DNA from: Nitrospinota bacterium
Lineage (GTDB): Bacteria > Nitrospinota > Nitrospinia > Nitrospinales > VA-1
Direction of reading: 5' to 3'
DNA length: 33,708 nt
Assembly (NCBI GenBank): GCA_038108555.1
Contig: JAYNIA010000009.1
Coordinates: forward strand, 1 to 33,708
Shown here: one piece after another, positions 464-33,708 of the stretch
How the letters are laid out: each line of letters starts with the position of its first letter
How positions within the stretch are numbered: position 1 is the stretch's first letter
Program-made: the position numbers and the translations under genes
Notes under the pieces: generated by a model
Database searches by the model: none
What the model was told of the DNA's origin: nothing
The model's input: the letters and a program-made list of their open reading frames with translations, nothing else

Positions 464-1717
464 TTATAACCAGATTTCTTTGGAGTTGATTCTTTCAAGT
501 GCCAGCTCGGTAGCCGCATCTCTAAAAATAAAATCTCCCTTTATCCGATTAAAAATTTCCCTGACATTTTTAGAAACAGTATTAAAAATCAGGTTTTCAG
601 TATAAGCCCGGGTCCCATGGGTTTTCACTTTTTCTGAATAATCTTTATCTTGAGTCATTTGACGTTCGACTGCGCAACCAATAACCCCACCTGCATTTAC
701 AATAAAGTCGGTTAACGATATTAATTTTTTGCGATGCATTAAATAGTATTCCACCGGTTTGCTACTGGGCGTGTTCGCCCCTTGAAGGATAATGCGGCAA
801 TCGATCCGATCGATATTTTTTGCAGTAATTGCATCAGGCCTGGCGGCTGGAACTAATATGTCACAGGGGACTTCGAGCAACCAGTCCAAATTTTTTGGAT
901 CGAATTTCCTTTCTACCCTTTGGGAATAATTGCTTAATCCACCTTCCTGTTTCCTGATTCGTGAGAGTTCATCCAAATCCAAACCTTTTGGATTCCATAA
1001 TGCACAATGGATATCAGAAGCACCTACAACCAGGGCACCTTTTTGATTTAATTTGACCGCAGTTGGGCCGCCTACATTACCAAATCCCTGTATAACCACT
1101 TTTGAATTATTAAGTTGGAAATCCTCCAGCAGTTCTTCAAGTGTCAATGCGGCTGCGTATAAACCGTGAGCGGTTAATTCCCAACCATCCAGAGGGATCC
1201 CCCCATATTCTTCAGGCCGACCTGAACCTCCCCTGTGATGATTTTTCTGTCGCAGCTTTCTTGTATGATTTTCCTGGATGATTTGAACATCGTATTCATC
1301 TGTACCCATATCTGCAGCGGGGATATATTTATCAATCTCAAATAATGCATCTGCCCATTTTTCCATCAACAGATTTTTTTGCTGTCGATCCTTATAAAAA
1401 TTTTGATTTGCAACTTTTAGTCCCGATTTCCCGCCCCCATAGGGCAAACAGGCGGCACTGTTTTTTAGAGTCATAACGTGTGCCAACCTGTTGACTTCAT
1501 TTAAGGAAACATCCGGTAGCATACGTATGCCACCCAGGCCGGGTCCTCTTTGCGTATTATCAACTGTTACAAACCCCCACACCTGATTTGTAGCCGGATC
1601 AAAAACCTCAAACCTAGCTTCCTGCTTATGTGAATTATCCTGTGAAAACCTGAATGTGTTCTCGGTTTTGGGTAATTTTCGGACTGAAAAACCATTTGCA
1701 GGCAATTTATTGGGCAT
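464..1717 (-). CDS. Glu/Leu/Phe/Val dehydrogenase family protein (probably not glutamate-specific)
   Basis: Motifs PGLGGIRM, MTLKN, PYGGGKSG, PAADMGT, Rossmann IQGFGNVG, LVPAA, GANTP, NAGGV. Confidence 0.9.
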   Translation of the reverse strand: MPNKLPANGFSVRKLPKTENTFRFSQDNSHKQEARFEVFDPATNQVWGFVTVDNTQRGPGLGGIRMLPDVSLNEVNRLAHVMTLKNSAACLPYGGGKSGLKVANQNFYKDRQQKNLLMEKWADALFEIDKYIPAADMGTDEYDVQIIQENHTRKLRQKNHHRGGSGRPEEYGGIPLDGWELTAHGLYAAALTLEELLEDFQLNNSKVVIQGFGNVGGPTAVKLNQKGALVVGASDIHCALWNPKGLDLDELSRIRKQEGGLSNYSQRVERKFDPKNLDWLLEVPCDILVPAARPDAITAKNIDRIDCRIILQGANTPSSKPVEYYLMHRKKLISLTDFIVNAGGVIGCAVERQMTQDKDYSEKVKTHGTRAYTENLIFNTVSKNVREIFNRIKGDFIFRDAATELALERINSKEIWL

Positions 1718-2349
1718 TACAGTTTTCTCATCATGACAATTCGGTGATAAAGAAGGGAGTCTTTATTGACTTTTCGTCCCTGCAAATATAGTAATAAATC
1801 CAGGTAGTGATTTTTATTTAGCCCCAGCCGGGTGATCAATTTAACAGCCATTCGATCTGCTTCCACTTCTTGATTGATACCGAATCCTAAAGGAACATCT
1901 ATTGATGGAAAAGCTCCATAATGCGATTCTCCGTTCCCGGATGAAGATGGGGCTGGAAAATTCTTCAAATTGGAATCGGGATTAACAATTATAATTCCTA
2001 TCCTTGAATAGTAATGACCCATTTTCAGATGAGATATTTCATGGGCTGCAACACAGATTCTACGAATAGGATTTAGCTTTTCTAAAAACCTTCTGTAAAT
2101 ATTTATTTCTCTTCCTTTGGTAACCCAAGCATTGTCAAATTCACCTTCCCAGACCACCGCTCTATATTTTCCATAATCCTGTGGGAAATTCATTTTAACG
2201 ACATAATCGATATCGGCCTGCCATATAGTGACCGCTTTCTTACAGGATGGAGATTGGCTGGTTTGGCAAATATATTGTTCGGGAAAACAACCTGAGTGAA
2301 ATAACAGGCTGATTGTCAGAAGAAATAAACGTGGGATATTTTTGATCAT
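1717..2349 (-). CDS. M48-family zinc metallopeptidase, probable lipoprotein
   Basis: HEISH zinc motif, DNAW motif, QEVEAD third-ligand motif. ATG at 2349 gives a lipoprotein-like signal (MIKNIPRLFLLTISLLFHSGC). Stop overlaps the next ATG (TAATG). Confidence 0.75.
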   Translation of the reverse strand: MIKNIPRLFLLTISLLFHSGCFPEQYICQTSQSPSCKKAVTIWQADIDYVVKMNFPQDYGKYRAVVWEGEFDNAWVTKGREINIYRRFLEKLNPIRRICVAAHEISHLKMGHYYSRIGIIIVNPDSNLKNFPAPSSSGNGESHYGAFPSIDVPLGFGINQEVEADRMAVKLITRLGLNKNHYLDLLLYLQGRKVNKDSLLYHRIVMMRKL

Positions 2350-2357
2350 GGCCAGGA

Positions 2358-4172
2358 TCAATAATAATTTATTCCACCACTCGCGTACAGAATTCCACTG
2401 GTCCCATCTGTTGGTGGAGGACCTTGAAAAGGAATTCCAAATGAAAGAGCAAAATTGTAACTGGGTCCCCAGGGTTTTGTTTTGGGTATATTCATTTTCA
2501 TACCGAATCCTCCGCCGGAAATGGCACGGTTAAGGTCATCGGGCACCTGATCCAGAATTTGAATTCTCCCACCTTCGATAAAAGCATTAAAAGAAAGGAA
2601 ATCTTTCCATTTAAGCTTTTCTCCTTTTGCCACAGGAGCATTTGAAGGGAAAGGAAGAACATATTCCAGGCCGACACTATATCCATTAGAACCAGAATAT
2701 TCAGATATCGGGAAACCGCGAACCGTACCAAATCCCCCTATAGAAAATAAATTAGAAGATAGTACCCGGGAACCAGAAATTTGCCCATTCCCTTTAATAA
2801 TAAAGTAACTTCCCAAAACTCCGGTTCCTTGAAATCGCGTGAAATTTAATTTAGCACGAAAAACATCTCCTCTGGCATCTATGCGAGATGCAAGGTTAAG
2901 GTTTTCATTAGATTCAGAGACACCCTGGTTAAACCTTAGCTCAGCAAAAGTCCTTCCCAAAAAACGATCTGTGTAATTCCCTCCCAGAGATACATGGATA
3001 CCTCTAAGGTTATCCCGGCTATCTATGGAACCCAAACGAAAGTTTCGGCTTTCTCTCATGGAGTAACCGGCTTTTAAGTTAAGTTGACCTAATCTTGATC
3101 GGTAAAGGGGATGGTTTACCTCAAACACATAAGAATCTGACGAACCTTTTATTTCCAATGGAATAATGTTACGGCCCTTGCCAAGGGATTGTTTCGAATG
3201 GGAATAGGAAAACTTAACCGTAGTTCCATAGTTATTTATGGGATATAAAAAAGAAGGGGCTACCAGGGACTGGGTAAAATCCGATTGAATGACCCTCAAA
3301 GAAAATTGATCTCCCAACTTTAAGAGATTTCCTGCGCTTGCAGAAAAATTGTAATGGACTCTGCCTGTAAATTCACTTCCGAAATTGTCCATATCGAATG
3401 CGAAAGAGTAAGCAGGACTTTCTTTTACTTCTAATACAAGATCTGAAGTTCCGGGCAATTCACCTGGTTTTAAAAGGGATTTAACAGTGACTCCCATCAG
3501 GTCATTCAATTCAAGTAAAGTTCTTTCCAGAGTTTGTTCTCTTAGAATTCCTTCTTCTTTTACTCTTGTCATGCGATTTGCAATTTCTTCGCTATCAAGA
3601 GATTTATTTCCAGTCACTTGAATATTGTTAATTTTGCCTTCAGCAATATTTATTTTTACAATACCATCTTGCAATTTCTGGGCTGGGACATAAGCTCGGG
3701 ACAAGAAATAACCCTGTGATACATAATAAGAGGTAAGTTCTTGGGCCAGCAGCAGTAAAAGGCCAAAGGTTATTTCTTTTCCTTTTTCATCCAGTTTTAC
3801 CAGGGCTTCCAGTTCTTCTTTGGGGAAAAGTGTGCTGCCTTCAACTGCAATTTTTTTTACGAAAAACTTTGGCCCTTTTTGAGGGTCAACAGGTTTGCGA
3901 CTGTCGGGTACCACGATTTCAGGTGCTTGTTCTTCAAGGGGCGGTTGGTAGAACGGCTGCGACTGTCTTAAAGATCTTTCCGATAACCCGGGTTCTGAAA
4001 ATTGGGGATTCTGAGCAGATTGTTGAGCCCAAAGGGAGTCCACAAAAAACAATCCATCTAAATATAATGGCGAGTATAAGATGCTTTGGTTTAAGATACT
4101 GGAGCAAGATTCTAAATTGTATATGTTAACTATCGAATATTTTCCTGGAAAAGTTTTATAATCATATACCAA
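2358..4172 (-). CDS. ShlB/FhaC/HecB (TpsB, Omp85-family) outer-membrane transporter; start uncertain
   Basis: POTRA-like segment (YYVSQGYFLSRAYVPAQ..GIVKINIAEGKI), DNFGSEFTG barrel start, loop-6 motif GGFGTVRGF, aromatic C-terminus. The annotated TTG start gives no good signal peptide. Confidence 0.87.
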   Translation of the reverse strand: MVYDYKTFPGKYSIVNIYNLESCSSILNQSILYSPLYLDGLFFVDSLWAQQSAQNPQFSEPGLSERSLRQSQPFYQPPLEEQAPEIVVPDSRKPVDPQKGPKFFVKKIAVEGSTLFPKEELEALVKLDEKGKEITFGLLLLLAQELTSYYVSQGYFLSRAYVPAQKLQDGIVKINIAEGKINNIQVTGNKSLDSEEIANRMTRVKEEGILREQTLERTLLELNDLMGVTVKSLLKPGELPGTSDLVLEVKESPAYSFAFDMDNFGSEFTGRVHYNFSASAGNLLKLGDQFSLRVIQSDFTQSLVAPSFLYPINNYGTTVKFSYSHSKQSLGKGRNIIPLEIKGSSDSYVFEVNHPLYRSRLGQLNLKAGYSMRESRNFRLGSIDSRDNLRGIHVSLGGNYTDRFLGRTFAELRFNQGVSESNENLNLASRIDARGDVFRAKLNFTRFQGTGVLGSYFIIKGNGQISGSRVLSSNLFSIGGFGTVRGFPISEYSGSNGYSVGLEYVLPFPSNAPVAKGEKLKWKDFLSFNAFIEGGRIQILDQVPDDLNRAISGGGFGMKMNIPKTKPWGPSYNFALSFGIPFQGPPPTDGTSGILYASGGINYY

Positions 4173-5535: not shown

Positions 5536-5931
5536 ATGAATCAAATCGGTGACTATATGAGCACAACCCTTTATTCCACCACACCTGATACATTGGCTCA
5601 TGAAGCAATTAATAAAATATATGAGAACAAAATAGGGGCGCTTTTAGTCGAAGAGAATGGGAACTATACCGGCATGTTTACAAAAACGGACTGGATGGCC
5701 CTGGTGTTAAAAGGTGAGTGTGACCCTAAATCCATAAAGGTATCCACAATCATGACGGACCTGAAACATACTATTGGAATCAATCAGACCATCCCAGAAG
5801 CCAGTGCCATCATCGAAGAAAATAAAATCCGCCATCTACCCGTAGAAGACAACGGAAAAATTGTCGGAATGTTTTCAGTTAAAGACCTGGAGAAATACTA
5901 TTTAGAGCTGCACAAAAAAACAGATTTTTGA
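5536..5931 (+). CDS. Stand-alone CBS-pair protein
   Basis: IGDYMS, IGALLV, VSTIMT, IRHLPV..GKIVGMFS..DL. SD AGGAG upstream. Confidence 0.9.
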   Translation: MNQIGDYMSTTLYSTTPDTLAHEAINKIYENKIGALLVEENGNYTGMFTKTDWMALVLKGECDPKSIKVSTIMTDLKHTIGINQTIPEASAIIEENKIRHLPVEDNGKIVGMFSVKDLEKYYLELHKKTDF

Positions 5932-5971: not shown

Positions 5972-6397
5972 CTAATCATCCGGGTAAAGCCTTACCAGTC
6001 TCACATAACCTTGAGAATAGTCCTGATCAAAATGTTGCGCCGTCCCTGAAACATAAGAAAAATAAAAGGCGGCCTGTTGATCGAAAGGCAAACACCAGGA
6101 GGCATTTCCACCACCGGATGCGAATAGGGGATCCAGATGTATTTCACAACTGGAACGGGCCATAATGGTGCTTTCCGGTACAAATATTTTTTCAATTTCC
6201 TCTTTTTCAGGGATGCGCCAGTCGTGATAGCCTAAATAATCTTTTTTATTCATTTCATCAACAAACTGTAACGCCTCCTGAAAGGTTAGCCAGTCCTGAG
6301 CAATGGGCCATGAATCCTGCTTGGCCCAAACCAGTCCGGTTTCGTTATCCAATATAGTTGAATCTCCCTTATCTACAAATCTGGGATTACTGGTCAT
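5972..6397 (-). CDS. DUF1566 (Lcl C-terminal, C-type-lectin-like) domain protein
   Basis: RFVDKGDSTILDNETGLVW, GYHDWRIP..EE, C-terminal VRLVR. SD AGGAG upstream. Confidence 0.85.
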   Translation of the reverse strand: MTSNPRFVDKGDSTILDNETGLVWAKQDSWPIAQDWLTFQEALQFVDEMNKKDYLGYHDWRIPEKEEIEKIFVPESTIMARSSCEIHLDPLFASGGGNASWCLPFDQQAAFYFSYVSGTAQHFDQDYSQGYVRLVRLYPDD

Positions 6398-7122: not shown

Positions 7123-7512
7123 TTAATCTTCCCAGCCACTCACCATCCCATTAAGAGAAACCATTCCCGTTATTGCGTTATTTTCGATGACCATGGCGTA
7201 GGAAACATTGAAGTTTGTCAGGAACCGGGCCGCAAATGGGATGGGCATATCAAAACTAACAGATAAAACCGGCTTGGACATGATTTCGTAAACATGGGCC
7301 TCGTGCAATTTTCTTCGATTCGCAATAACCTTTCTCGCAATATCCTTTAGGGTCATGATTCCATAAACATCGGCGTCATCTCTGGGTTCAACCAATACGG
7401 CATTGATTTTCCTGCTACGCATCATATGAAGGGCATCAGAAACTTTCATAACGCCATCAACTTTAGTGAAGTTAGACATCATGACATCTCCAACTCTTTT
7501 TATTTCTGCCAT
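7123..7512 (-). CDS. CBS-pair protein (last gene of DUF1538 operon)
   Basis: VGDVMM, YGIMTLKDIARKV, VYEIMSKPVLSV. Confidence 0.88.
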   Translation of the reverse strand: MAEIKRVGDVMMSNFTKVDGVMKVSDALHMMRSRKINAVLVEPRDDADVYGIMTLKDIARKVIANRRKLHEAHVYEIMSKPVLSVSFDMPIPFAARFLTNFNVSYAMVIENNAITGMVSLNGMVSGWED

Positions 7513-7534
7513 TCGTTTCTCCAGCTCCCTTTAA

Positions 7535-7882
7535 TTAGAAATAATGTTCCTTGGCATCTTTTTCCATGGATGGCATTTGACTCTCCAGGCCAATAGCACG
7601 GTCAACGTCCAGGGAGAATGTGATGCCATTTCCCTGATCACTCAATTGTCCTGAATCATAAATTGCGTTCATAATGTCGTCGGCCATAAAATCTTCCACC
7701 AGAAATAGAAGCATGTCTTTTTGGGATTCCATTGATAGTCCCAAAAATGATTTTTGCGAATGAATACCTTCACCACGGGCATTCAATATGGTAACACCTG
7801 TTGCCCCTGCGGCTTTGGCGGCTTCAATTACTTCATTCTGATATTTATCATTAACTAAAGCTAAAATAACTTTAAAACGCAT
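7535..7882 (-). CDS. PII-like signalling protein
   Basis: AAKAAGATGVTILNARGEG and B-loop-like GNGITF. Lacks the GlnB/K uridylylation Tyr and the C-terminal RIRTGE. SD GGAGG upstream. Confidence 0.85.
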   Translation of the reverse strand: MRFKVILALVNDKYQNEVIEAAKAAGATGVTILNARGEGIHSQKSFLGLSMESQKDMLLFLVEDFMADDIMNAIYDSGQLSDQGNGITFSLDVDRAIGLESQMPSMEKDAKEHYF

Positions 7883-7895
7883 AAGTCAAAACCTC

Positions 7896-8705
7896 CTAAG
7901 AGTTATTTTTTCTTCGCTTATTTTTGGCCAGAATTTCGGTGATCATAGCATACGCCATTACCGTTATCATAGGGAAAAGGGAGGCGAACGCTATGAGACC
8001 AAAGCCATCTATTAAAGGTGATCGACCCGGAACATTGGATGCTAAACCAATTCCCAGTGCCGCGATCAATGGTACGGTCACAGTTGATGTCGTCACTCCC
8101 CCGGAATCATATGCTAAAGGAACAATCATTTTGGGGGAGAAATAAGTTTGAATCAATAAGAACGCATAACCCGCAGCGATGTAATAATGAAGAGGATCTC
8201 CGGTTACTATCCGATAAACTCCCAGGGAAACTCCAACCGCAACTCCCAATGCAACTGATATTCTGAGTCCCCATGCAGATATTGCCCCAGTGGTAATTTC
8301 TTTTGCCTTCAAAGCGACGGCAATAAGCGCCGGTTCTGCAAGCGTGGTGGAGAATCCAATCAAAAAGGCAAAAACATAGGTCCATAAATATATTGAAGGA
8401 TCAACCGTCGAAGACGCTTTAATGGCTTCAATTTCACTTTTTTCTCCAGACGTTAAAAAATTAAGATCCGTCAATTGGTTTGCCATTTGTGTTCCTATAG
8501 GAAAAACACATTTTTCCAAACCAACTATAAATATACTCAGTCCCACTACGACCAGAAGAAGGCCAAAAAGAATGTTTTTCAGGTTGGGAATTTTTTTGCG
8601 GATAGCAACCGCTTGAAAGAATCCCAAAACCAAAATGATTGGTAGGATATCTATAAACGTCCCACCAAGCGCATTAACAATAGCTTTTAAAAAATTGTTT
8701 TCCAT
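7896..8705 (-). CDS. DUF1538-family membrane protein (subunit B)
   Basis: Polytopic, with motifs GLE..FPIG, TTLAEPAL, AYDSGGVTTSTVTVP, GRSPLIDGFGLIA. Confidence 0.88.
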   Translation of the reverse strand: MENNFLKAIVNALGGTFIDILPIILVLGFFQAVAIRKKIPNLKNILFGLLLVVVGLSIFIVGLEKCVFPIGTQMANQLTDLNFLTSGEKSEIEAIKASSTVDPSIYLWTYVFAFLIGFSTTLAEPALIAVALKAKEITTGAISAWGLRISVALGVAVGVSLGVYRIVTGDPLHYYIAAGYAFLLIQTYFSPKMIVPLAYDSGGVTTSTVTVPLIAALGIGLASNVPGRSPLIDGFGLIAFASLFPMITVMAYAMITEILAKNKRRKNNS

Positions 8706-8708
8706 AAA

Positions 8709-9455
8709 CTAGAAATTCAAGCCATAAACAAAAATTCCATAGGCCAATACAAAAATGATTGGATTCAAACTGGCGAGCGCAATCAAACCGAAACCATCGA
8801 GAATAGGGTTCCTCCCTCGAATGGCTGTTGCCAAACCTACACCCAAAGCTGCTACAAGGGGAACGGTTATGGTAGAGGTAGTTATTCCCCCTGAGTCATA
8901 AGCGATTCCAATTATTTGTGGTGGAGCAAAAAAGGTGGTGATAACGATGAGGGAATACCCGCCAATGATAAACCAGATCAGGGGCCACCCTTTAATAATT
9001 CGCAACACACCCAAAGCGATGGCCATTCCCACTGAAAAAGCAACCGTAAACCTGAGGCCCAGTACAAAAGAGCCGATGGATTCCTCATTGTCCTGGATGG
9101 CTCCGGCACCGGCGGCGAGCCCTCCAGCCTTACCTGCTACCACGGTTAATGCGGGTTCCGCAATGGTGGTGGAAAACCCAAGAGCGAATCCAAAGAAAAT
9201 TATCCATAGGGCATTCCCTTTAATGGCAAATTCGTTTGCCATCTTTTCTCCAATGGGGAATAGGGCACTGTCCAATCCCAGAATAAAAACAAACAGACCA
9301 AAAACGACAAGCAAAACTCCCAATAATATTTGATCCAGATGCGGAAAAGGTTTTTGGATTATGACGATTTGGAAAAATGCAATTACAAGGATGATGGGGA
9401 ATACATCCATGAAGGCGGAAAAAATTTTTTGAAGGAGAGCTTTAGCTATAGCCAC
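8709..9455 (-). CDS. DUF1538-family membrane protein (subunit A)
   Basis: Paralog of the downstream gene: TTIAEPAL, AYDSGGITTSTITVP, GRNPILDGFGLIA. GTG start. Confidence 0.88.
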   Translation of the reverse strand: MAIAKALLQKIFSAFMDVFPIILVIAFFQIVIIQKPFPHLDQILLGVLLVVFGLFVFILGLDSALFPIGEKMANEFAIKGNALWIIFFGFALGFSTTIAEPALTVVAGKAGGLAAGAGAIQDNEESIGSFVLGLRFTVAFSVGMAIALGVLRIIKGWPLIWFIIGGYSLIVITTFFAPPQIIGIAYDSGGITTSTITVPLVAALGVGLATAIRGRNPILDGFGLIALASLNPIIFVLAYGIFVYGLNF

Positions 9456-10234: not shown

Positions 10235-10546
10235 TTAAAGAGCTAGATGGTTTTTATTGTCACGGATATTTTGAACTATTTTATCCGCGATTTCATCTGC
10301 CTTGATCGAATAGTTGCCATCACGTAGAACATTGCGAAATTTATTCACTAAATCGTGACGTATTTCGCCTGTTACATTTTTGGACTCCTTGGTCGATGCC
10401 TGGCTCTTTGAAGTTTCAGAAAGGGTCACACGGTCTGCAGCGTTTCCGGAGTAATTTTCTCCCTTAACAGGATTTTTAACACCTCCGGATTCACCTTTGA
10501 CAGCGCTTCCTCTGTCTAATTTAATTGTAGGTTCTAGTTTGTTCAT
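10235..10546 (-). CDS. flgM: Anti-sigma28 factor FlgM
   Basis: DRVTLS motif and C-terminal IRHDLVNKFRNVLRDGNYSIKADEIADKIV. Lies 3 bp downstream of flagellin. Confidence 0.85.
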   Translation of the reverse strand: MNKLEPTIKLDRGSAVKGESGGVKNPVKGENYSGNAADRVTLSETSKSQASTKESKNVTGEIRHDLVNKFRNVLRDGNYSIKADEIADKIVQNIRDNKNHLAL

Positions 10547-10549
10547 AAT

Positions 10550-11407
10550 TTACTGGAGTAGCAATAAAACTCCCTCAGGTATTAAATTAGCCTGTCCTAC
10601 CATAGCGGCAGAAGTCTGTACTAACAAAAGCTGTTTTGTTAAACCTGTTACTTCCTGGGCCACATCAGCATCACGAATGGTGGAAGCCGCTGCTGTAAGA
10701 TTTTCAATATTCACCCCAAGGTTTTGAATCGCTCTTGTAAGCCTGTTTTGAGCTGCACCCACACGAGCACGGGCGCCACTTAAAGTATCTACTGCATTTT
10801 GAAGTTCAACCAAGGCTTCGCGTGCACCCTCCTTGGTACTGATATCAAGATTCTCGATTCCCAAACTGGTCGTGGTTGTCGCGGCCAGATTGAGGGTTTC
10901 ATTTAAATTGATTCGATTTTCTACACTTGAATCCAAACCAATATGGATGATGACATCCTCACCGGGAGCTCCGGATTCCAACGACCCATCCAAGAGTTTT
11001 TGACCTAAAAACTCATTGGTATTGGTAATACGGTTTATTTCCTGCTTGATGGCATCAAATTCGAGTTGCAGGGTTTGTCTTTCTGCATCTCCGATTGTTC
11101 CTGTAGAAGCCTGCGAAGCAAGTTCTCTGGAACGAATGAGAATTCCCGCCAAAATAGTCAGACCACCTTCTGCAACGTTATTGATTAATGACAATCCATC
11201 CTGCAAGTTTCTCAATCCCTGGCGATACGCACGCGCATCGGAACGCAAAGATTCTGAAATAGACAGACTGGCACCATCATCGGAACTGTTTTGAACACGT
11301 TCTCCTGAAGCAACCTTGCCTATGGCTTCTCCAAGATTGGCGTTGTTCCGGTCAAGACGGTTTTGGGCAATTTGTGAATTGAGATTATTGAAGATTCTGA
11401 GTGGCAT
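10550..11407 (-). CDS. fliC: Flagellin (short, essentially D0/D1 only)
   Basis: N-terminal ASGERVQNSSDDGASLSIS..RNLQDGLS; C-terminal RARVGAAQNRL..ENLTAAASTIRDADVAQE..QAN..P..VLLLLQ. Confidence 0.95.
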   Translation of the reverse strand: MPLRIFNNLNSQIAQNRLDRNNANLGEAIGKVASGERVQNSSDDGASLSISESLRSDARAYRQGLRNLQDGLSLINNVAEGGLTILAGILIRSRELASQASTGTIGDAERQTLQLEFDAIKQEINRITNTNEFLGQKLLDGSLESGAPGEDVIIHIGLDSSVENRINLNETLNLAATTTTSLGIENLDISTKEGAREALVELQNAVDTLSGARARVGAAQNRLTRAIQNLGVNIENLTAAASTIRDADVAQEVTGLTKQLLLVQTSAAMVGQANLIPEGVLLLLQ

Positions 11408-20705: not shown

Positions 20706-21341
20706 TCAGGATTTGGCTTGAGACTCAGGAAGCGTCACAAAATCATTACATAAAGAAAGCAGGTTTTCAAAATTTACCGGTTTGGTAAAAAACGAATTGG
20801 CCCCTGCTTCCAGCACCTCGGATTCCGAATAACGCAGGTCCCCGGAAATCGTAACGATCTTGATATTTTCCGTTTTGGGGTCAGATCTCAAATTCTGGCA
20901 AACCTGCAGTCCATTGATACCCGGTAGTGTGATATCAAGAATCATGATGGTCGGCTGGAATTCTGCGGCTTTCTTGCCGGCTTCCCATCCATCGTAGGCG
21001 GTCTCGACAAGAAAATCGTTTTTATGGAAAATCTTTTTCAGCAAGTCGCAAAATTTGACTTCGTCATCCACAACGAGAATTTTTCGAGTGGATTTTTCTT
21101 TCTCTTCTTTTTCTAAAATTTCCTGGATCATTGCAATGGTGTAGCCCTTTTTCTGCAAGGCATAAACCTGTTTGCATCTTTCTTCAACCCAGGCCGGATA
21201 ATATCCAACAATTCCCTTTCCTCCAGGATGACCTTCCTTTTGTGGATCGGGAAAGAAACGGTATTTTTTCTGCCACAACCATAAGGTTTTTCTGGTTATG
21301 GGAACGACTTTTAAAATATCAGCAGCGGTAATTCTAGACAT
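20706..21341 (-). CDS. Response regulator with N-terminal MerR-like HTH and C-terminal receiver
   Basis: N-terminal AADILKVVPITRKTLWLWQK..GYTIAMIQEIL; receiver ILVVDDE, ILDITLPGING, ISG, TKPV. Confidence 0.85.
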   Translation of the reverse strand: MSRITAADILKVVPITRKTLWLWQKKYRFFPDPQKEGHPGGKGIVGYYPAWVEERCKQVYALQKKGYTIAMIQEILEKEEKEKSTRKILVVDDEVKFCDLLKKIFHKNDFLVETAYDGWEAGKKAAEFQPTIMILDITLPGINGLQVCQNLRSDPKTENIKIVTISGDLRYSESEVLEAGANSFFTKPVNFENLLSLCNDFVTLPESQAKS

Positions 21342-21739: not shown

Positions 21740-23314
21740 ATGAGTTTTTTCAGCATTTTTCGTGTTTCTCTGCTGACCTTTTTATTGACCTGTTTTTTTG
21801 CATTGGAAGTACATGCACAGTCGCCCTCCCCGGTTTCTTTTTCTTTAAGCCTTAAGGAAACCATCGAGGACGCTCTAAAAAATAATGTCAATATTGCAGT
21901 TCAAAAATACAACTCAAAAATAAACGAACAAGCCATTTATGAAAAAATGGCGGAATTCGATACCACGTTAGAATTTGAACTTTCTGTAGGAGAAGAAACC
22001 CGCCAGCAAGCGAGCGCGTTTGCTAATCCTGTCAAAAGTAGAAACCAAAATTATGACTGGGATTTTTCCATCAGCAAAAAATTTGTGACGGGTGCTGACT
22101 ACGAATTGAGTTTTGATACCAACCGCAATCTTACCAATTCAACATTTGCCGGACTCAATCCGCAATACACCTCTGATTTGAATTTGGCGTTGACCCAGCC
22201 GTTATTGAAGGACTTTGGAATCGATAACAACAAACGCGAGATTTATATCGCAAAAAATAATCAGAAAATTTCAGACTTCGAATTTGAGTCCTCCGTTATT
22301 GATGTCATTACAGAAGCAGAGAACACCTATTGGGATCTGGTTTTCAGCATTGAAGATTTGAAGGTTAAGGAAAAATCCCTTGAAAGAGCACAGGATTTGG
22401 AAAAGCAGGTAAAGGCCCAGGTCGAAGTGGGAACCATGGCCCCCCTGGAAATGCTTCAGGCTCAATCTGAAGTTGCTTCCCGTGAACAGCTATTACTCAG
22501 TGCTCAGGATATTATTCTTGATAACGAAGACAATTTAAAAAACATTCTTAATTATTCGTTTGATACTGAGTTGGGTCAGAAACGGTTGGAGCCTACCGAA
22601 CCTCCGGTGTTTGATCCGGGCACAGAAGGTTCATTGGAAGAATCATTGCAGGTGGCGTTAAGTGACAGGCCTGATCTACTGGTCAAAAAGAAAGAACTCG
22701 AAAACCGAAATATTGAAGTTAAGTACAACGAGAATCAAACCTACCCTACTCTCGATCTGGTCAGCAGTCTGGGACTCAATGGTATTAGCGGTGAAGCTAT
22801 CAACATCACCAGTGGTACCGTTCAGGGAAGAAGTAAATTTGGTGGAAATTATGGGGACGCCTTAAGCGATGTCGGTTCAGGGAAATACCATCTCTGGGAG
22901 TTCGGTCTGAATTTCAGTTATCCTCTGGGCAATCGTGCTGCAAAAAGTAAATTGGCTGCCAAGAAGCTTGAAGTTGCGCAACTCCTTTTAGATATAAAAG
23001 ATCTGGAAAAAACCATTACGGTGGAAGTCCGTGAAGCCTATCGGCAAATCAAAACAGATATTAAAAGAGTGCATGCGGCGCGAATTGCAAGAAAACTTGC
23101 AGAGGAGAAGCTCAGTGCTGAGGAGAAGAAGTTTGAAGTCGGTCTTTCCACCAGTTTCAATGTTTTGGAATTTCAGGAAGATCTCGCAGAAGAGCAAAGC
23201 AACGAAATAAAGGCGATCATTGATTATAAAAAGTCTAAGAACCGGTTGCGACAGGTGAAAGCACAGACTTTGAAGGAGAACAATATCCAATTAACTGAAG
23301 GCGATGAAACATGA
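21740..23314 (+). CDS. TolC-family outer-membrane efflux protein
   Basis: Signal peptide (..VHA-Q), LSLKETIEDALKNN, LTQPLL, YWDL, KFEVGLST. First gene of a MacAB-type operon. Confidence 0.9.
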   Translation: MSFFSIFRVSLLTFLLTCFFALEVHAQSPSPVSFSLSLKETIEDALKNNVNIAVQKYNSKINEQAIYEKMAEFDTTLEFELSVGEETRQQASAFANPVKSRNQNYDWDFSISKKFVTGADYELSFDTNRNLTNSTFAGLNPQYTSDLNLALTQPLLKDFGIDNNKREIYIAKNNQKISDFEFESSVIDVITEAENTYWDLVFSIEDLKVKEKSLERAQDLEKQVKAQVEVGTMAPLEMLQAQSEVASREQLLLSAQDIILDNEDNLKNILNYSFDTELGQKRLEPTEPPVFDPGTEGSLEESLQVALSDRPDLLVKKKELENRNIEVKYNENQTYPTLDLVSSLGLNGISGEAINITSGTVQGRSKFGGNYGDALSDVGSGKYHLWEFGLNFSYPLGNRAAKSKLAAKKLEVAQLLLDIKDLEKTITVEVREAYRQIKTDIKRVHAARIARKLAEEKLSAEEKKFEVGLSTSFNVLEFQEDLAEEQSNEIKAIIDYKKSKNRLRQVKAQTLKENNIQLTEGDET

Positions 23315-24633
23315 AAAAAACCCTGATTTTGATCGGGGTGTTACTCGTTCTTTCTGTCCTATATTTTTCTGATAGCGAATCAGAAGCGCCCCTCAAGCCC
23401 AAATTTAATTTTGCTGAGGTAACTCAAGGGCCCCTTTCTATTAAAATTTCTGCGACAGGTGTCGTAGAACCCAATTTTAAGGTTGAGGTTAAATCTAAAG
23501 CCAGTGGTGAAGTTCTTTCCTTTCCTCTTCTTGAAGGCGATAAAGTAGAAAAAGGAACCCTGCTTTTACAATTGGACAAATCCGATGAAAAGCGGAATGT
23601 CGCCAAAGCCAAGGCCGATCTTTCCAGTGCCATTGCAAAACTGAAAAAAGCCGAAACTGCCCTGCTCCTTCAACAGACAAAATATCAAACTGATATTAAA
23701 AGCTCCCAGTCCGAAGTCCAAACAGCCATTGCCAATCTCAAGGAAAGTGAGGACAAGCTAAAAAGACAGGTCGAGTTGTTTGAGGAAAAAGTAGTGTCTC
23801 AGGAGTCACTGGATGCAGCCAAAACGGTCTTTGAAGTCAATCAGCAGCAATTGATCCAAGCCGAATCGCAGCTACAGGAGGCCAAGGATTCCGTTCATGA
23901 TATTGCCATGAAGGAAAACGAAATAGAGCTTGTCAAAACCGAAGTGGAACTTGCCGAAATAGCCCTTGATGAAGTTGAGGAGAGACTGGAAGAGACGGAA
24001 ATTTTTGCGCCGATCACCGGAGTGATTATTGAGAAACTGGTGGAAGAAGGACAGATCATCGCTTCCGGCATCTCCAATGTCAGTGGTGGAACCGCCCTCG
24101 CCACAATTGCCGATATGTCCCGCCTTTACATCATTGCTGATATTGATGAAACAGATATTGGTTCTGTTAAAATGGGACATAAGGTAACCATTACTGCAGA
24201 TGCTTTTCCGGATAAGAAATTTAAGGGTCGTGTTAAACGCATTGCGCCACAAGGATTGGTGGAAAACAGTATTACCATTTTCAAAGTTAAAATTGAGGTA
24301 CTTGGAAAAGGCAGAAAAATTTTAAAACCCATGATGTCTGCGAATATCGAAATCGTGACGGACCATGTAAAAAATGCGGTTTACACTACAAGAGCAGGCA
24401 TCCGAGATGGGAAAGAAGGCAAGTTTGCCATGGTATTAAAAGATGACATGCCTGAAAAAGTCCCAGTTAAAACAGGAATCAAAAATCCCATTCATGTCCA
24501 GATTCTTTCCGGGTTATCTGCCGGGGATCAGGTGATATTGGGAGATTGGGAAAAGGTCCTTGAAGAAGCAAAGAAATCCGGCGGAAAAGGGTCTTCCCTT
24601 AAAAAGATATTGTGGATGATTCGCTCTAAATAA
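23311..24633 (+). CDS. Periplasmic adaptor (MacA/HlyD-like membrane fusion protein)
   Basis: N-terminal anchor, ATGVVEP..VEVKSKASG, EGDKVEKG lipoyl half, long coiled coil, APITGVI, IDETDIG. Confidence 0.92.
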   Translation: MKKTLILIGVLLVLSVLYFSDSESEAPLKPKFNFAEVTQGPLSIKISATGVVEPNFKVEVKSKASGEVLSFPLLEGDKVEKGTLLLQLDKSDEKRNVAKAKADLSSAIAKLKKAETALLLQQTKYQTDIKSSQSEVQTAIANLKESEDKLKRQVELFEEKVVSQESLDAAKTVFEVNQQQLIQAESQLQEAKDSVHDIAMKENEIELVKTEVELAEIALDEVEERLEETEIFAPITGVIIEKLVEEGQIIASGISNVSGGTALATIADMSRLYIIADIDETDIGSVKMGHKVTITADAFPDKKFKGRVKRIAPQGLVENSITIFKVKIEVLGKGRKILKPMMSANIEIVTDHVKNAVYTTRAGIRDGKEGKFAMVLKDDMPEKVPVKTGIKNPIHVQILSGLSAGDQVILGDWEKVLEEAKKSGGKGSSLKKILWMIRSK

Positions 24634-24646
24634 CGAAGAGGCCGTT

Positions 24647-25330
24647 TTGATTGAAGCCAAAAACCTTTCCAAAACTTATGACACAGGCGTGTTATCAGTC
24701 ACCGCATTGGAACAAGCCAGTTTTCAAATAGGGAAAGGTGAGTTTGTTGCCATCATGGGTCCCTCCGGCAGTGGCAAATCCACTCTAATGAATTTACTGG
24801 GGTGTCTGGACCTTCCCTCCAGTGGTTCTTATTTTCTTGAAGATGTAGATATAGGCCAACTCAAACCCAACCAATTAGCCGAAGTAAGAAACCGAAGGAT
24901 CGGATTCGTATTTCAAAGTTTCAATTTACTTCCCCGGGCCACCGCCCTCGAAAATATCGAATTGCCCCTCCTCTATGGACGGGTTCCCAACTCAACTGAA
25001 ATTGCCATGAATGCACTGGATCGGGTGGGATTAAAACACCGGGCAAAACATAAACCAACAGAACTTTCCGGTGGAGAAAAACAAAGGGTGGCTATCGCCA
25101 GGGCTCTGGTGAACCAACCAGCCATTATTCTTGCGGATGAACCCACAGGCAACCTGGATTCGGCTACAGGAGAAGAAATCATGTCTCTGTTTCACAAGTT
25201 AAATGAAGAAAAGGTAACCCTGATTCTGGTCACGCATGAAGAGGAAATCGCCCAACAGGCCAAACGGATCATAAAAATGAAAGACGGAAAAATTGTTCAG
25301 GACCAGTTATTAGGAGTCGCTTCATGCTGA
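24647..25330 (+). CDS. ABC transporter ATP-binding protein (MacB/LolD type)
   Basis: Walker [48 protein letters not shown]. Confidence 0.95.
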
Positions 25331-26532
25331 TTCTGGACTTATTTAAAATGGCGCTCAGAAGTTTGATATCCCATAAACTTCGTACGTTCTTGACCGCATT
25401 GGGGATCATCATTGGGGTGGCCTCCGTAATATCCATGATTTCTATTGGTGAAGGAGCCCGACAGCAAACCCTGAGCACCATTTCCAAGTTTGGAACCAAT
25501 ATTATTACCATCAAGCCCGGCCAGAAAAAATCTCGACATGTCTCCACGGGAAAAGTTGATACTCTGATGCTTGAAGATGCAAATGTGATCGAAAAGAATG
25601 TTCCTTTAATCACCGGAGTGGCGGCTCAGGTTTATCGATCTGCCCAGTTGAAGTATGGCAACAAAAACACCAACACAACGGTTCGTGGAACCGGAAAAAG
25701 TTATGCGCGATTGGCCAATTTTGAAATGAAGAATGGTCGCTATTTCAATCAACCGGAAATCAATGCCGCGAAAAGGGTCTGTGTTCTCGGTGCTACGGTG
25801 GTTAAAAATCTATTTGAGGAAGCTGAGCCTCTGGGACAAACCATCAAAGTTGATGGAAAAAATTTCATGGTTATAGGCACCACAGAGCCCAAGGGGGCTT
25901 TGAGTTGGTTTGATCCAGACGATCAGATATTTATACCCGTTACCACGGCTCAAAAAAGGGTTTTCGGGATGGACCATATCCAATCCATTGATGTTCAGGC
26001 AGCAAATATTGAAGATCTCGAGATCATTAAAGAAGACATCGCTCAATTATTGAGACTGCGCCACAATATCGCAGAAGGCAAAGAGAATGACTTTTATGTT
26101 CAAAACTCATCGCAATGGTTGAACAGTTGGGGAGATGCAGCAAAAACTTTTACCTACCTGCTGGGTGGAATTGCAGCCATTTCCCTCATGGTGGGTGGAA
26201 TCGGGATCATGAATATCATGCTGGTTTCCGTCACAGAACGCACACGGGAAATCGGCATTCGTAAAGCCATTGGTGCCAAGAAAAAGGAAATTCTAGAACA
26301 GTTTCTCATTGAATCTGTTTTAATCAGCTTTCTAGGAGGTGGAATCGGGATCCTATTGGGAGTTTCCATTTCTAAAATGGTTTCAAAAATTGGTGGATGG
26401 GACACGATTGTATCCACACAATCCATCCTTCTAGCCTTCGGTTTTTCAGTGGGAATAGGTATTTTCTTCGGATTTTATCCTGCCAATAAAGCTGCAAACA
26501 TGAATCCCATAGAAGCCTTACGGTACGAATAG
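25324..26532 (+). CDS. ABC transporter permease (MacB/FtsX type)
   Basis: LRTFLTALGIIIGVASV, large periplasmic loop, GGIGIMNIMLVSVTERTREIGIRKAIGA, PIEALRYE. Confidence 0.95.
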   Translation: MLILDLFKMALRSLISHKLRTFLTALGIIIGVASVISMISIGEGARQQTLSTISKFGTNIITIKPGQKKSRHVSTGKVDTLMLEDANVIEKNVPLITGVAAQVYRSAQLKYGNKNTNTTVRGTGKSYARLANFEMKNGRYFNQPEINAAKRVCVLGATVVKNLFEEAEPLGQTIKVDGKNFMVIGTTEPKGALSWFDPDDQIFIPVTTAQKRVFGMDHIQSIDVQAANIEDLEIIKEDIAQLLRLRHNIAEGKENDFYVQNSSQWLNSWGDAAKTFTYLLGGIAAISLMVGGIGIMNIMLVSVTERTREIGIRKAIGAKKKEILEQFLIESVLISFLGGGIGILLGVSISKMVSKIGGWDTIVSTQSILLAFGFSVGIGIFFGFYPANKAANMNPIEALRYE

Positions 26533-28996: not shown

Positions 28997-29422
28997 ATGA
29001 CAGAATCAAATCGATTTCAAGATAACTCCTCTGGAGTGATTACAGATAATAAACATAAGAAATACTGGTTACCTAAAGACTCCTGGGGCGATTTGGGTCA
29101 ATGGAGAAACTATGAGGAAGCCCTGGGGTACGCGCGTCTTATGAACCAGGTTTATGCAGGGGGGTATAGTGATTGGCGGCTTCCCACAAAAGAAGAAGCA
29201 GAAGGACTCTATGATCTTTCCTGTGATTCGATTGATTGGCAAGATGAAGTGGTTCATATTTCCACCCTGTTTGTAACCAAATGCTCGAATTATATTTGGA
29301 CCAGTGACAAGGACGAAAACCAGAACGTCTGCAGGATTAATCTGAGAAATAAAGAAACGGAATATATTGACCCCAATACCCGCGAGCATCAAGCTGCCAG
29401 ACTGGTCCGGGATATTTCATAA
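28997..29422 (+). CDS. DUF1566 (Lcl C-terminal) domain protein
   Basis: RFQDNSSGVITD, GGYSDWRLPTKEE, YIWTS, ARLVR. Confidence 0.85.
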   Translation: MTESNRFQDNSSGVITDNKHKKYWLPKDSWGDLGQWRNYEEALGYARLMNQVYAGGYSDWRLPTKEEAEGLYDLSCDSIDWQDEVVHISTLFVTKCSNYIWTSDKDENQNVCRINLRNKETEYIDPNTREHQAARLVRDIS

Positions 29423-29910: not shown

Positions 29911-31044
29911 TTGATAAAAAAATTTACCAACCGCTTGAATGAAGAGCTAGAGGGTCGCAAGGAAAGGCACCTTCATCGAGAAGTGAGGTTGTATAATAAC
30001 TATAAGCACAACCTGGCTTCCAACGACTATTTTCAGCTACGGTTTCATCCCAAGGTAGTTTCAGGGGCCCAAAAAGCTTGTGAAGAATATGGTTCCGGTA
30101 GTGGGGCCTCCCCTCTTCTATCGGGGCATTTACCCTGTCATCACGAATTATTGCAGGAAATACTTGATTGGAAGCAAAAACCCTTTGGGATGCTTTTTAA
30201 TTCAGGTTTTGTAGCGAATCAATCCATATTAAAACATCTTCCTGGAAAAAATGATTTAGTTCTAGCAGACAGGCTCATCCACCATTCACTGGCCCAGGCG
30301 TTATTGAGTTGCCCTGCAAAATTCAAACGGTACAACCATTTGGATTTAGATGCACTGGAATCCCTTTTACAGAAAAATCAAAATAATTACGACTCTATTT
30401 TTGTAATTTCTGAAAGTGTTTTCAGTATGGATGGCGATTATCCAGACTTGAAAAAGCTTGTGGCTCTGAAAAAATTATATCCCTTTGTTTTGGTGCTGGA
30501 TGAAGCTCATGGAACAGGTATTTTTGGGGGTAATGGAGGTGGGTTGGCAGAAGAAATGGGTGTGTTGCCTGAAATAGACATTCTTGTGGGTACCCTGGGA
30601 AAATCACTTGCAAGTATGGGAGCTTATGTATTAACAAACGAACAATGCATCATTGACTATTTAACCAATGAGGCCGGTGAATATATTTATTCTACCTTCC
30701 TAACCCCCTCCCAGGCAGGAGCCGCTTTGGAAGCCATTAAATTGATACAAAATTACGCAGAGAAAAGGGTTAAATTGCGGGAATTATCCAAATATATTAG
30801 AAAAGAATTGAATCAACCCAACTCCGACTTTGAATCGCCGATTGTTCCTGTGATTATAGGAGATCCTCAATCAACTTTGGAACTGAGGGATAAATTACTG
30901 GAAAATGGAATACTGACCGGTGCGGTTCGGCCACCCACCGTTCCTGCGGATACTTCCCGGTTAAGAATTTCTCTGCATTCGGAAGTAAATAAACTTGTTG
31001 TCGATGAAATATTGAATATGATTGGTTCATGGAGAAAAAGCTGA
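29911..31044 (+). CDS. bioF: 8-amino-7-oxononanoate synthase
   Basis: NLASNDY, GSGASPLLSGH, FNSGFVAN, ESVFSMDGD, DEAH, GTLGKS (PLP Lys), RPPTVP..SRLRISL. Confidence 0.92.
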   Translation: MIKKFTNRLNEELEGRKERHLHREVRLYNNYKHNLASNDYFQLRFHPKVVSGAQKACEEYGSGSGASPLLSGHLPCHHELLQEILDWKQKPFGMLFNSGFVANQSILKHLPGKNDLVLADRLIHHSLAQALLSCPAKFKRYNHLDLDALESLLQKNQNNYDSIFVISESVFSMDGDYPDLKKLVALKKLYPFVLVLDEAHGTGIFGGNGGGLAEEMGVLPEIDILVGTLGKSLASMGAYVLTNEQCIIDYLTNEAGEYIYSTFLTPSQAGAALEAIKLIQNYAEKRVKLRELSKYIRKELNQPNSDFESPIVPVIIGDPQSTLELRDKLLENGILTGAVRPPTVPADTSRLRISLHSEVNKLVVDEILNMIGSWRKS

Positions 31045-31685
31045 CAATAACAGCCATATCCGGTTGGGCCGTTCCGGAATCATGGTATGCGGAGCAAATA
31101 CAAACTGCCTTCCCCGATTCCGATATTAATATTGTCTATCCCAAGCAACCTGAAGATAGCCGGGAGGCAAAAGAAATCCTTGATCGATTTCAATCCCAGC
31201 TTTATATCGGATACTCCCTGGGAAGCCTGTGGCTTTTAAAATATCAAAGTTATTTGCCCAAAAATTGCCTGAAGGCCCTCTTGGCGCCAATATTGGCATT
31301 TCTAAACAATGCCGATTTGGGAGGGAAAACCTCTAAATCGCAATTAGAATATTTAATTAAAATTTTGGCCCGGAACTCCAACCAAACAGAGGTTTTAAGG
31401 GATTTTTTCTTTCATGCAAATTTGCCTTATCCCGAAACCCATATGCAGGAGATAAAAGACAAAAATATCCTGATAAATGGTTTGGAATTCCTGAAAAATT
31501 CCTCAGTCAGTGGCAAAGAAACTAATGATTTTTTGTCGATTATAGGAGAAAATGATATTTTTGTGGATGCAGAAGCTTTAAAAAGGCATATTCCACATTT
31601 GGAAATCATAAGGGATGTGGGACATTCACCCATACCTCTATTGAACCAATTGGCTAAAACCTTGAAGAAAAAAGAAACTATTTAG
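31029..31685 (+). CDS. Alpha/beta hydrolase, candidate pimeloyl-ACP methyl ester esterase (BioH-like)
   Basis: SGWA oxyanion-like motif, GYSLG nucleophile, GEND acid, GHS histidine. Overlaps bioF by 16 bp. Confidence 0.7.
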
Positions 31686-31690
31686 TTTTA

Positions 31691-33708
31691 ATGAAAATCT
31701 TTGGAATAAATTTTATTGAGAATCCCAGTCCCAAAAACCCAATATCTATTGCGGTTTGCGATTTTAAAAAAAATCATGGGCTATCGATTCACAAAGTCGA
31801 AACTTATGACACTCTTCAAGAGTTCGAGACCTTTTTAAAACAAAAGGGTCCCTGGTTTGCCGGAGTCAATTTTCCTCTTGGTCAACCCAAACAGTTTCTT
31901 GAAAAAATGTCATTATCAAATGGCTGGGATAAAAATATAAAAGAAATCCAGAAATGGAAAAAGGCCGGGTTTGAAAAAAAGGTCAAACAGTATGCAAAAA
32001 AACTTCCGAAAGGAACAAAAATCCCCCTGCGAATTACTGATATTTTTGCTGGAGGAGATAGTCCCTTAAAAAGCACAGGAAGCCATTCCTTGCATCGCTT
32101 CTTTGAAGGTACCGAATGTCTGCTTAAATCTGGTGTTTCAATTTTTCCCTGTTTTCCCAGAAAAACGAATCGAGTTGTTATAGAAACCTTGCCCTCGCTG
32201 GTTGCCGGGCGATTCATGGTTCAGGAAGCCAATAGAAAAAAGAAAAAATCGGATTCGGAGAATATTCATAAAGAAGTTATAAAAGGATTGGAAACTCCGG
32301 AATTCGAGCATGACTTCGATTTCAAATTATTTATTGATGACACCTTAAAGCTAAAATGTATTGAGGACGCAAAAGGACGGTCGCTGGATGCCATTTTAAG
32401 TGCCGTTCAAACTGCCTGGTCCTACAATATGGGGAAACCCAATTATGGAATTCCTGATCTCCAACATCCCAGTATTAAATCTGAAGGTTGGATCATTGAT
32501 CCCAGTTTGGTTAATGGTATTGCCAAATCCAGGAACCAGTTAGGCAGTGAACTGGCTGAATTCATTCAAAAAGGAGGATTGGATTCAAAAAGGTCCTTCA
32601 ATCTGATGGGCCATATTCAAAGGCTATCCAATATTGGACGAGCCCTCTCAGGTGAGCGGAACCTGAATGCTTTACTTGAAATTATAGTTAATGAAGCAAG
32701 AAGCCTCACCTATGCCGATGGAGGAACGCTTTATATCCTCGAAGATGGTGTTTTAAATTTTAAAATCGTACAGAATGAATCCCTGAATATTTTTATGGGT
32801 GGTACAACCGGTAAGGAGATTACGTTTCCTCCGGTGGCTTTGAAAGAATCAAATGTATCTGCCTATGTGGCTATAAAGAATATCTCCGTTAATATTCCTG
32901 ATGTCTATAACTATGAACCATTCGACTTCACGGGCCCTAAAAAATTCGATGAAAAGACCGGTTACCGAACTCGGTCTATGCTGGTGGTACCTCTCACCAA
33001 CCATGAAGATGTGGTTATTGGAGTTTTGCAACTACTGAATGCAAGGGATGTAAAGGACAAAAAAAGGGTGATCCCCTTCTCTCCAGATTACGAAAGCCTC
33101 GTTGAATCATTGGCATCACAGGCGGCTGTAGCTGTAAGTAATACTTCCCTTATTAATGAGTTGAAATCTGCACATCAGACCTTAATTGTTGCCCGTGACA
33201 AATCTGAGGAAGCCAACCGTGCAAAAAGTAATTTTCTTGCAAATATGAGTCATGAACTGCGTACTCCAATGAACGCCATAATCGGATACAGTGAAATGTT
33301 GTTGGAGGATGCTAAAGAGGAAGGACTTGATGATTTTGAAGAAGACCTTGGAAAAATACGATCCTCGGGAAAACATTTATTGGGGCTTATCAACGAAATT
33401 CTGGATCTTTCTAAAATTGAAGCAGGGAAAATGGATATCGTCCTTGAAAGTTTCGATATTTATAAACTGGTTAAAGAAGTGGAAGCCACGATTCATCCCC
33501 TTGCAGAAAAAAATTCCAATAAGTTGATAATAGATTGCCCCGAAAACGTAGGCACCATGGACGCCGATGAAACCCGGGTTCGGCAAATGCTGCACAATTT
33601 ATTAAGCAACTCATGCAAATTTACAGAAAATGGGACCGTAACCCTCAGAGTTTATCTGGATAACAGAGATGATATCGACTGGGTCAATTTTGCAATTATC
33701 GATACCGG
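31691..33708 (+). CDS. Soluble sensor histidine kinase: DUF429-like domain + GAF + HisKA + HATPase (3'-truncated by window)
   Basis: Missing from the ORF track. Translated by hand it is open from ATG 31691 to the end (672 codons). [36 protein letters not shown]-box [18 protein letters not shown] (His codon 33251), N-box [11 protein letters not shown]1 box beginning DTG at the window end. Confidence 0.9.

Follow-up and report, generated by a model that had tools for sequence, protein, structure and literature searches.

A histidine kinase gene at the end of the 33,708-nt stretch of Nitrospinota DNA analysed here (the window; assembly GCA_038108555.1, contig JAYNIA010000009.1, positions 1 to 33,708) begins with a domain of the DUF429 family that is predicted to have lost the active site of a RuvC-like nuclease and kept its scaffold. 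The gene (31691..33708, + strand) encodes DUF429, GAF, HisKA and HATPase domains in that order, and joins a standard kinase core to an undescribed front domain. In the two sister genera that share the inactive version (g1 and g20, together the inactive clade), comparison of sequences indicates that the domain is under purifying rather than relaxed selection, with conservation moved from its loop region to a candidate docking patch and to the linker before GAF. From this pattern we tentatively propose, at little short of an even chance, that the domain is a pseudo-nuclease docked on GAF via a fixed linker and would serve as a non-cutting allosteric module that tunes the kinase.

The kinase frame is open without interruption from the ATG at 31691 to the window end (672 residues), where a scaffold gap of 100 Ns begins (contig C9, 33709-33808). 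Past the gap, 16 codons lead to a stop at C9 33859, and the tail they encode (VKVV...RRRKTDR) matches the ends of 753-residue orthologs, by which we judge the full protein to be about 753 residues long. The preliminary description, made from the letters of the window, had proposed extending the contig to look for a receiver domain; because the post-gap tail matches the ends of these orthologs, the kinase has none, and none was present in the orthologs scanned or in the tail itself. Pfam matches place GAF at residues 324-482 (32660..33136), HisKA at residues 511-579 (33221..33427; PF00512, 77.6 bits), with His521 (33251-33253) in the motif SHELRT, and the first part of HATPase (N box and start of the G1 box) at residues 626-672 (33566..33706, partial). 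About 64 further HATPase residues fall inside the gap; this domain is complete in orthologs and broken in the copy of genome G004. Pfam matches of the window protein and its orthologs included no RelA/SpoT synthetase domain. The kinase has no membrane segment, its highest 19-residue hydropathy being 1.29, and lysine accounts for 36 of the 275 N-terminal residues (13%, against 6-7% in the remaining protein). Frame, domain order, lysine content and the residues N7, N60, E165, R230, D233 and H521 are all as first described. The fusion is also confirmed as real and not an assembly artefact: a search of 41 genomes gave 19 with a match, 18 of which carry it, and contigs from three further runs of one estuary study (X2-X4) span the point where the N-terminal domain ends, with no alternative letter at codons 7 and 60. 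A fourth run, X1, may itself have yielded the DNA of the window.

Assignment of the N-terminal domain (residues 1-272, 31691..32506) to DUF429 rests on its relatives and its fold. The window's own copy gave no match to the Pfam model (PF04250, cut-off 23 bits), so the profile check suggested for these residues fails for this copy and succeeds for some of its orthologs, 5 of 11 scanned passing the cut-off with 28-46 bits (L009, L011, L015, L016 and L020). Atlas assigns the window domain to DUF429 clusters at 0.97, with 29 of 30 matches being DUF429, and a homology search returned 607 representatives at E values up to 0.001, many covering residues 1-274. A structure model (predicted local distance difference test score, pLDDT, 95) has a five-strand core with flanking helices, and its best fold matches are RuvC, Ydc2 and poxvirus resolvase; a profile comparison with RuvC was not significant. 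Together these results bear out the proposed DUF429/RNase H fold. Residue 7 ends strand 1 in the model, residue 60 lies directly after strand 4, and residues 230 and 233 open the last helix. By position, the family's DxxD at the start of this C-terminal helix would be the equivalent of RuvC D138/D141. The strand-1 and strand-4 positions coincide with those at which RNase H-like endonucleases carry their two key acids, according to the portion of the source available (PMC3985635), where DUF429 (PF04250; COG2410, COG4328, COG4923) stands in RNase H-like clade D; the window domain shares the motif order and fold of that family, and its relatives share the strand-1 and strand-4 acids. Unlike the family, the window copy falls below the Pfam cut-off and lacks three of the four aspartates.

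We compared 29 protein clusters of the inactive clade with 54 intact fusions. Asn7 (31709..31711, AAT) replaces the strand-1 Asp in 29 of 29 clade clusters, and Asn60 (31868..31870, AAT) replaces the Asp at the end of strand 4 in 27 of 29; both positions are Asp in 54 of 54 intact fusions. The DxxD reads Arg230-x-x-Asp233 in the window (32378..32389), and across the clade Asp230 is kept in 0 of 29 clusters and Asp233 in 9 of 29. His193 (32267..32269) is likewise fixed in the clade (29/29) in place of a family-invariant Arg (54/54 in intact fusions). A count over 17 individual domains of g1 and g20 gave the same picture (N7 in 16 of the 16 that cover the site, N60 in 15 of 17, D230 in 0 of 16, and D, N or T at position 233). 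The clade has also lost, or varies at, T9, S10, K16, P132, M136, Y167 and R193, all seven of which the 54 intact fusions retain without exception; R114, D117, S124, E165 and the EGW motif are kept in the window domain. Among 37 family invariants, the clade lost 12 (the polar D7, T9, S10, K16, D60, Y167, R193, D226, D230 and D233, plus P132 and M136) and kept 25. Because 10 of the 12 lost invariants are polar against 5 of the 25 kept (Fisher p 0.0007), the pocket appears to have been lost and the scaffold retained.

The preliminary description had linked inactivation to fusion, and here the relatives contradict it. D7, D60, R114, D117, E165, D230 and D233 are all kept in 27 of 27 full domains from ten other genera, of which 26 are fused to a kinase and 1 is free; among kinase fusions found with an intact query, which favours intact ones, 60 of 62 also keep these residues. 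Because all 27 domains of other genera in the order keep all four Asp, the fusion is older than the loss of the acids, and the loss is derived in the two sister genera. The 16 inactive rows form one branch among intact ones (support 97 in the Shimodaira-Hasegawa-like approximate likelihood-ratio test, SH-aLRT) in a domain tree rooted on free relatives, and the clade is one branch in the GAF-kinase tree as well; these are quick trees with SH-like support only, with G079 omitted from the domain trees and the rows of genus g17 removed from the GAF-kinase trees by a motif filter. A further fused protein, P0037, decayed independently (approximately unbiased, AU, test p 0.0016), and for P0212, a fused protein with Cys at position 7, the AU p was 0.17. 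The expectation that Asn would be rare at these sites in stand-alone members held, with Asp7 in 133 of 137 and Asp60 in 140 of 141 relatives that lack a kinase. The free DUF429 protein P0044 has Asn at both 7 and 60, and P0040 has Asn at 7, which indicates that the same Asp-to-Asn change arose outside kinase fusions too.

Selection on the inactive domain has apparently not been relaxed. By a simple counting method, the ratio of nonsynonymous to synonymous substitution rates (dN/dS) of the domain was 0.064-0.100 in five unsaturated pairs of the inactive clade, against 0.088-0.179 in seven intact pairs, in agreement with the earlier view that the scaffold is maintained. At matched domain identity (0.55-0.70; 185 clade and 83 intact pairs, which are not independent), residues 111-147, the family's most conserved loop region, had an identity of 0.52 in the clade against 0.81 in intact fusions. 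The reverse was seen in a patch at residues 198-228 (32282..32374; 0.72 against 0.43), a candidate docking surface, and in the linker at residues 273-305 (32507..32605; 0.80 against 0.16), which contains an amphipathic stretch at residues 283-296 (helical moment 0.55). Spacing from EGW to the GGTLY motif of GAF is 79 residues in 29 of 29 clade clusters, against 68-84 in the 54 intact fusions. The shift of constraint from loop region to patch and linker was also seen when sequences were grouped by genus.

Our proposal orders these observations as follows. Comparison shows that an intact DUF429 domain was fused to a GAF kinase within the bioF-bioH-bioC cluster early in one order; as both comparison and trees show, the ancestor of the two sister genera lost the acids and conserved polar residues and kept the fold, and conservation shifted to patch and linker. 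Because substrate-site residues were lost while patch and linker gained constraint, we infer that domain and kinase are coupled: patch and linker may contact GAF, the first GAF helix or a partner protein, so that the domain would act allosterically rather than enzymatically. From what is known of the family, a kinase dimer would autophosphorylate His521 and pass the phosphate to a response regulator encoded elsewhere, and the output might lie in a motility and cyclic di-GMP (c-di-GMP) network rather than in biotin synthesis. The preliminary description had cast the dead domain as a repurposed sensor of nucleic acid, nucleotide or a partner protein; its nucleic-acid option is weakened, since groove residues are lost and charge is not raised, and binding of a partner or of the protein's own GAF helix fits the data better.

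A catalytic trap would be a different kind of sensor, in which the non-cutting domain still binds RNA:DNA hybrid or branched DNA and thereby switches the kinase. Its appeal lies in the isosteric Asn7 and Asn60, fixed in 29 and 27 of the 29 clusters, and in precedents from sources available in part: the RuvC double mutant D7N E66D retains the ability to bind and trap Holliday junctions (PMC5222578), D7N takes away one of four essential carboxylates (PMC3864405), and the DUF429 domain of RelZ cleaves RNA:DNA hybrids and R-loops (PMC7591505). The net charge of the window domain (+11) and the retained R114, D117, S124, E165 and EGW would suit nucleic-acid binding as well, but intact fusions are just as positive (median +9, against +8.5 in the clade). 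The loss of conserved polar residues beyond the acids argues against a trap, region 111-147 is now among the least conserved parts of the domain, and the fused protein P0212 carries Cys rather than Asn at position 7; we consider a trap unlikely. The domain could also be a structural passenger, the product of a chance fusion of neighbouring genes, kept only because misfolding at the N-terminus would damage the kinase or upset coupled translation of the cluster, with GAF as the sole sensor. This DUF429 subfamily does fuse with many unrelated partners (NUDIX, CinA, deaminase, HTH, AAA kinase, CobU, MmgE/PrpD and others), and domain and kinase also occur apart: genome G026 has a GAF-PAS-kinase without the domain, whereas its sister sequence P0154 has it, and G027 has the domain alone. 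The separate decay of P0037 points the same way, as do broken kinase copies or remnants in eight genomes, all of g1 and g20, and the frequent deletion of the gene. A gain of constraint, however, is unexpected of a passenger. In the clade the linker is far more conserved than that of intact fusions and constant in length, every one of the 29 clusters has His193, and dN/dS is not relaxed, so that we hold this explanation to be rather doubtful; were it right, the gene would be a gene-fusion curiosity.

The position of the gene in a biotin cluster is the sole basis for a further explanation, by which DUF429 handles or senses a small metabolite or a protein of that cluster rather than nucleic acid, and the kinase reports pathway status. 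We think this very improbable: the bio genes remain where the kinase has been deleted, since in 19 genomes it is absent without trace and the BioH-like gene and bioC adjoin; the neighbourhoods of free relatives from other phyla are varied, and the 33 genes scanned at eight such loci include no biotin gene; and both the top fold matches and the acid pattern point to nucleases. Beyond the inactive clade lies a broader possibility, one we regard as improbable: across most of the order, an active DUF429 domain would bind or cut R-loops, hybrids or branched DNA and couple this to phosphorylation of the histidine, and it would have become a pure sensor twice, here and in one other lineage. If true, natural variants within the order would span the change of an enzyme into a pseudo-enzyme sensor, and would provide a first path by which damage to nucleic acid, or foreign nucleic acid, feeds into two-component signalling.

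No paper on a DUF429 kinase was found in our literature search, in keeping with the initial remark that no kinase of this architecture had been described. The closest known protein is RelZ (MS_RHII-RSD, MSMEG_5849) of Mycobacterium smegmatis, which likewise sets an N-terminal DUF429 domain before a signalling enzyme, going by the parts of the reports available (PMC3153485, PMC4429107, PMC7591505, PMC5566576). The two are likened by description: RelZ has an active DUF429 nuclease and a (p)ppGpp synthetase output, whereas the present protein has a GAF histidine kinase as output and a DUF429 domain predicted to be dead. Inactivation of one RelZ domain left the activity of the other unaltered, according to the available part of a further report (PMC10500699). 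DUF429 proteins are described as mostly single-domain, and the portion of the source available gives as fusions only NUDIX, RelA/SpoT and phosphomethylpyrimidine kinase. RuvC-fold proteins without resolvase activity have precedents in TEFM (PMC3105396), Tex and Spt6, which act in transcription complexes; in the passages available, none is reported as a kinase input. The remainder of the protein resembles cytoplasmic GAF histidine kinases, with the same GAF-HisKA-HATPase core and no membrane segment. DUF429 has one characterised member, and sensor kinases fronted by a nuclease fold were not found in the literature searched. The order offers matched variants (the fusion in intact and in inactive form, and domain and kinase each without the other) that let DUF429 function, and the conversion of an enzyme to a regulator, be tested directly, and the shift of conservation to linker and patch points to residues for mutation.

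The GAF domain is of the phosphodiesterase/adenylate cyclase type; its nearest solved relatives are adenylate cyclase 1ykd, PDE5 and the HD-GYP protein 4mcw (E 1e-15 to 5e-8). The NKFDE motif of cyclic-nucleotide-binding GAFs is degenerate relative to PDE5: N450, F463 and E468 are present, Ala451 (invariant in 51 rows) stands for Lys and Tyr467 for Asp, so cyclic nucleotide binding is not to be assumed. Its closest paralog in the genome, with 65% identity, is the GAF of a GAF-HD-GYP protein (L002:6422-8098, - strand), whose gene was found in 49 of 62 genomes searched and lies 19-75 kb from the kinase in the seven genomes compared with both on one contig. We considered 54 genomes of the order that are at least 88% complete: where the fused frame is open (25 genomes), the GAF-HD-GYP gene and flagellin are always both present; of the other 29, 12 lack the former and 6 the latter. 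This hints at a link of the kinase to motility and c-di-GMP; genome streamlining could yield the same pattern. The fusions end in an RRx(S/T)D tail in 56 of 63 cases, against 1 of 2,723 long frames of this genome; presumably it resembles RxxD c-di-GMP sites, a likeness for which a search gave no support. No regulator gene adjoins the kinase, and receiver matches above cut-off number 57 genome-wide. Within the window, 10 kb from the kinase, lies an orphan response regulator whose receiver is preceded by a weak MerR-type helix-turn-helix (20706-21341, -), and a flagellin gene followed by flgM occupies 10235-11407 (-).

Of 120 Nitrospinota genomes, 50 have the domain (30 among the 57 of high quality). 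They belong to four families of a single order, and none of 18 genomes from five other families of the phylum has it; titled relatives are likewise Nitrospinota. In the first 19 matching genomes it is fused to a GAF(-PAS)-kinase in 18, and in G027 it is free and followed by a receiver-kinase gene. The kinase gene sits 3' of bioF and a BioH-like gene and mostly 5' of bioC and a Maf-type gene. In the window these upstream neighbours are a bioF-like 8-amino-7-oxononanoate synthase (29911..31044, +; TIGR00858, 360 bits, below the cut-off of 426) and a putative 218-residue BioH-like hydrolase (31029..31685, +), named from its GYSLG, GEND and GHSP motifs with no family match. The hydrolase gene ends 5 bases before the kinase start and is a conserved upstream neighbour of it. 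All 13 high-quality genomes without the domain have bioF. Elsewhere in these neighbourhoods, bioF is split over two frames in G034 (L090:1486-2558), and in G017 about 1 kb without a kinase match and without N separates the BioH-like gene from bioC (L089:2964-4031). Past the gap, an O-methyltransferase lies in two frames (L001:6595-7625, -) and is a single 326-residue gene in relatives. Small genes with an Lcl_C domain occur at 5972-6397 (-) and 28997-29422 (+), the second being a conserved neighbour of the bio cluster.

Among DUF429 relatives, proteins of 550-570 residues (P0213, P0223, P0029 and similar) recurrently pair an intact domain with a C-terminal domain whose motif by eye is restriction-nuclease-like, and two relatives match DUF6946. 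The PADLOC candidate PDC-S44 gave no match for the window domain and weak partial matches (E 1e-4 to 8e-3) in three of five relatives; with the restriction-like fusions, these hint at a defence role for some DUF429 members. Elsewhere in the window, a transporter gene of the ShlB/FhaC type with POTRA domains is followed by an M48 peptidase gene (1717-4172, -). Two DUF1538 genes, a P-II-family gene and a CBS-pair gene form one run (7123-9455, -), with another CBS-pair gene at 5536-5931, and TolC-like, membrane-fusion, ABC ATPase and MacB-type permease genes form a further run at 21740-26532 (+).
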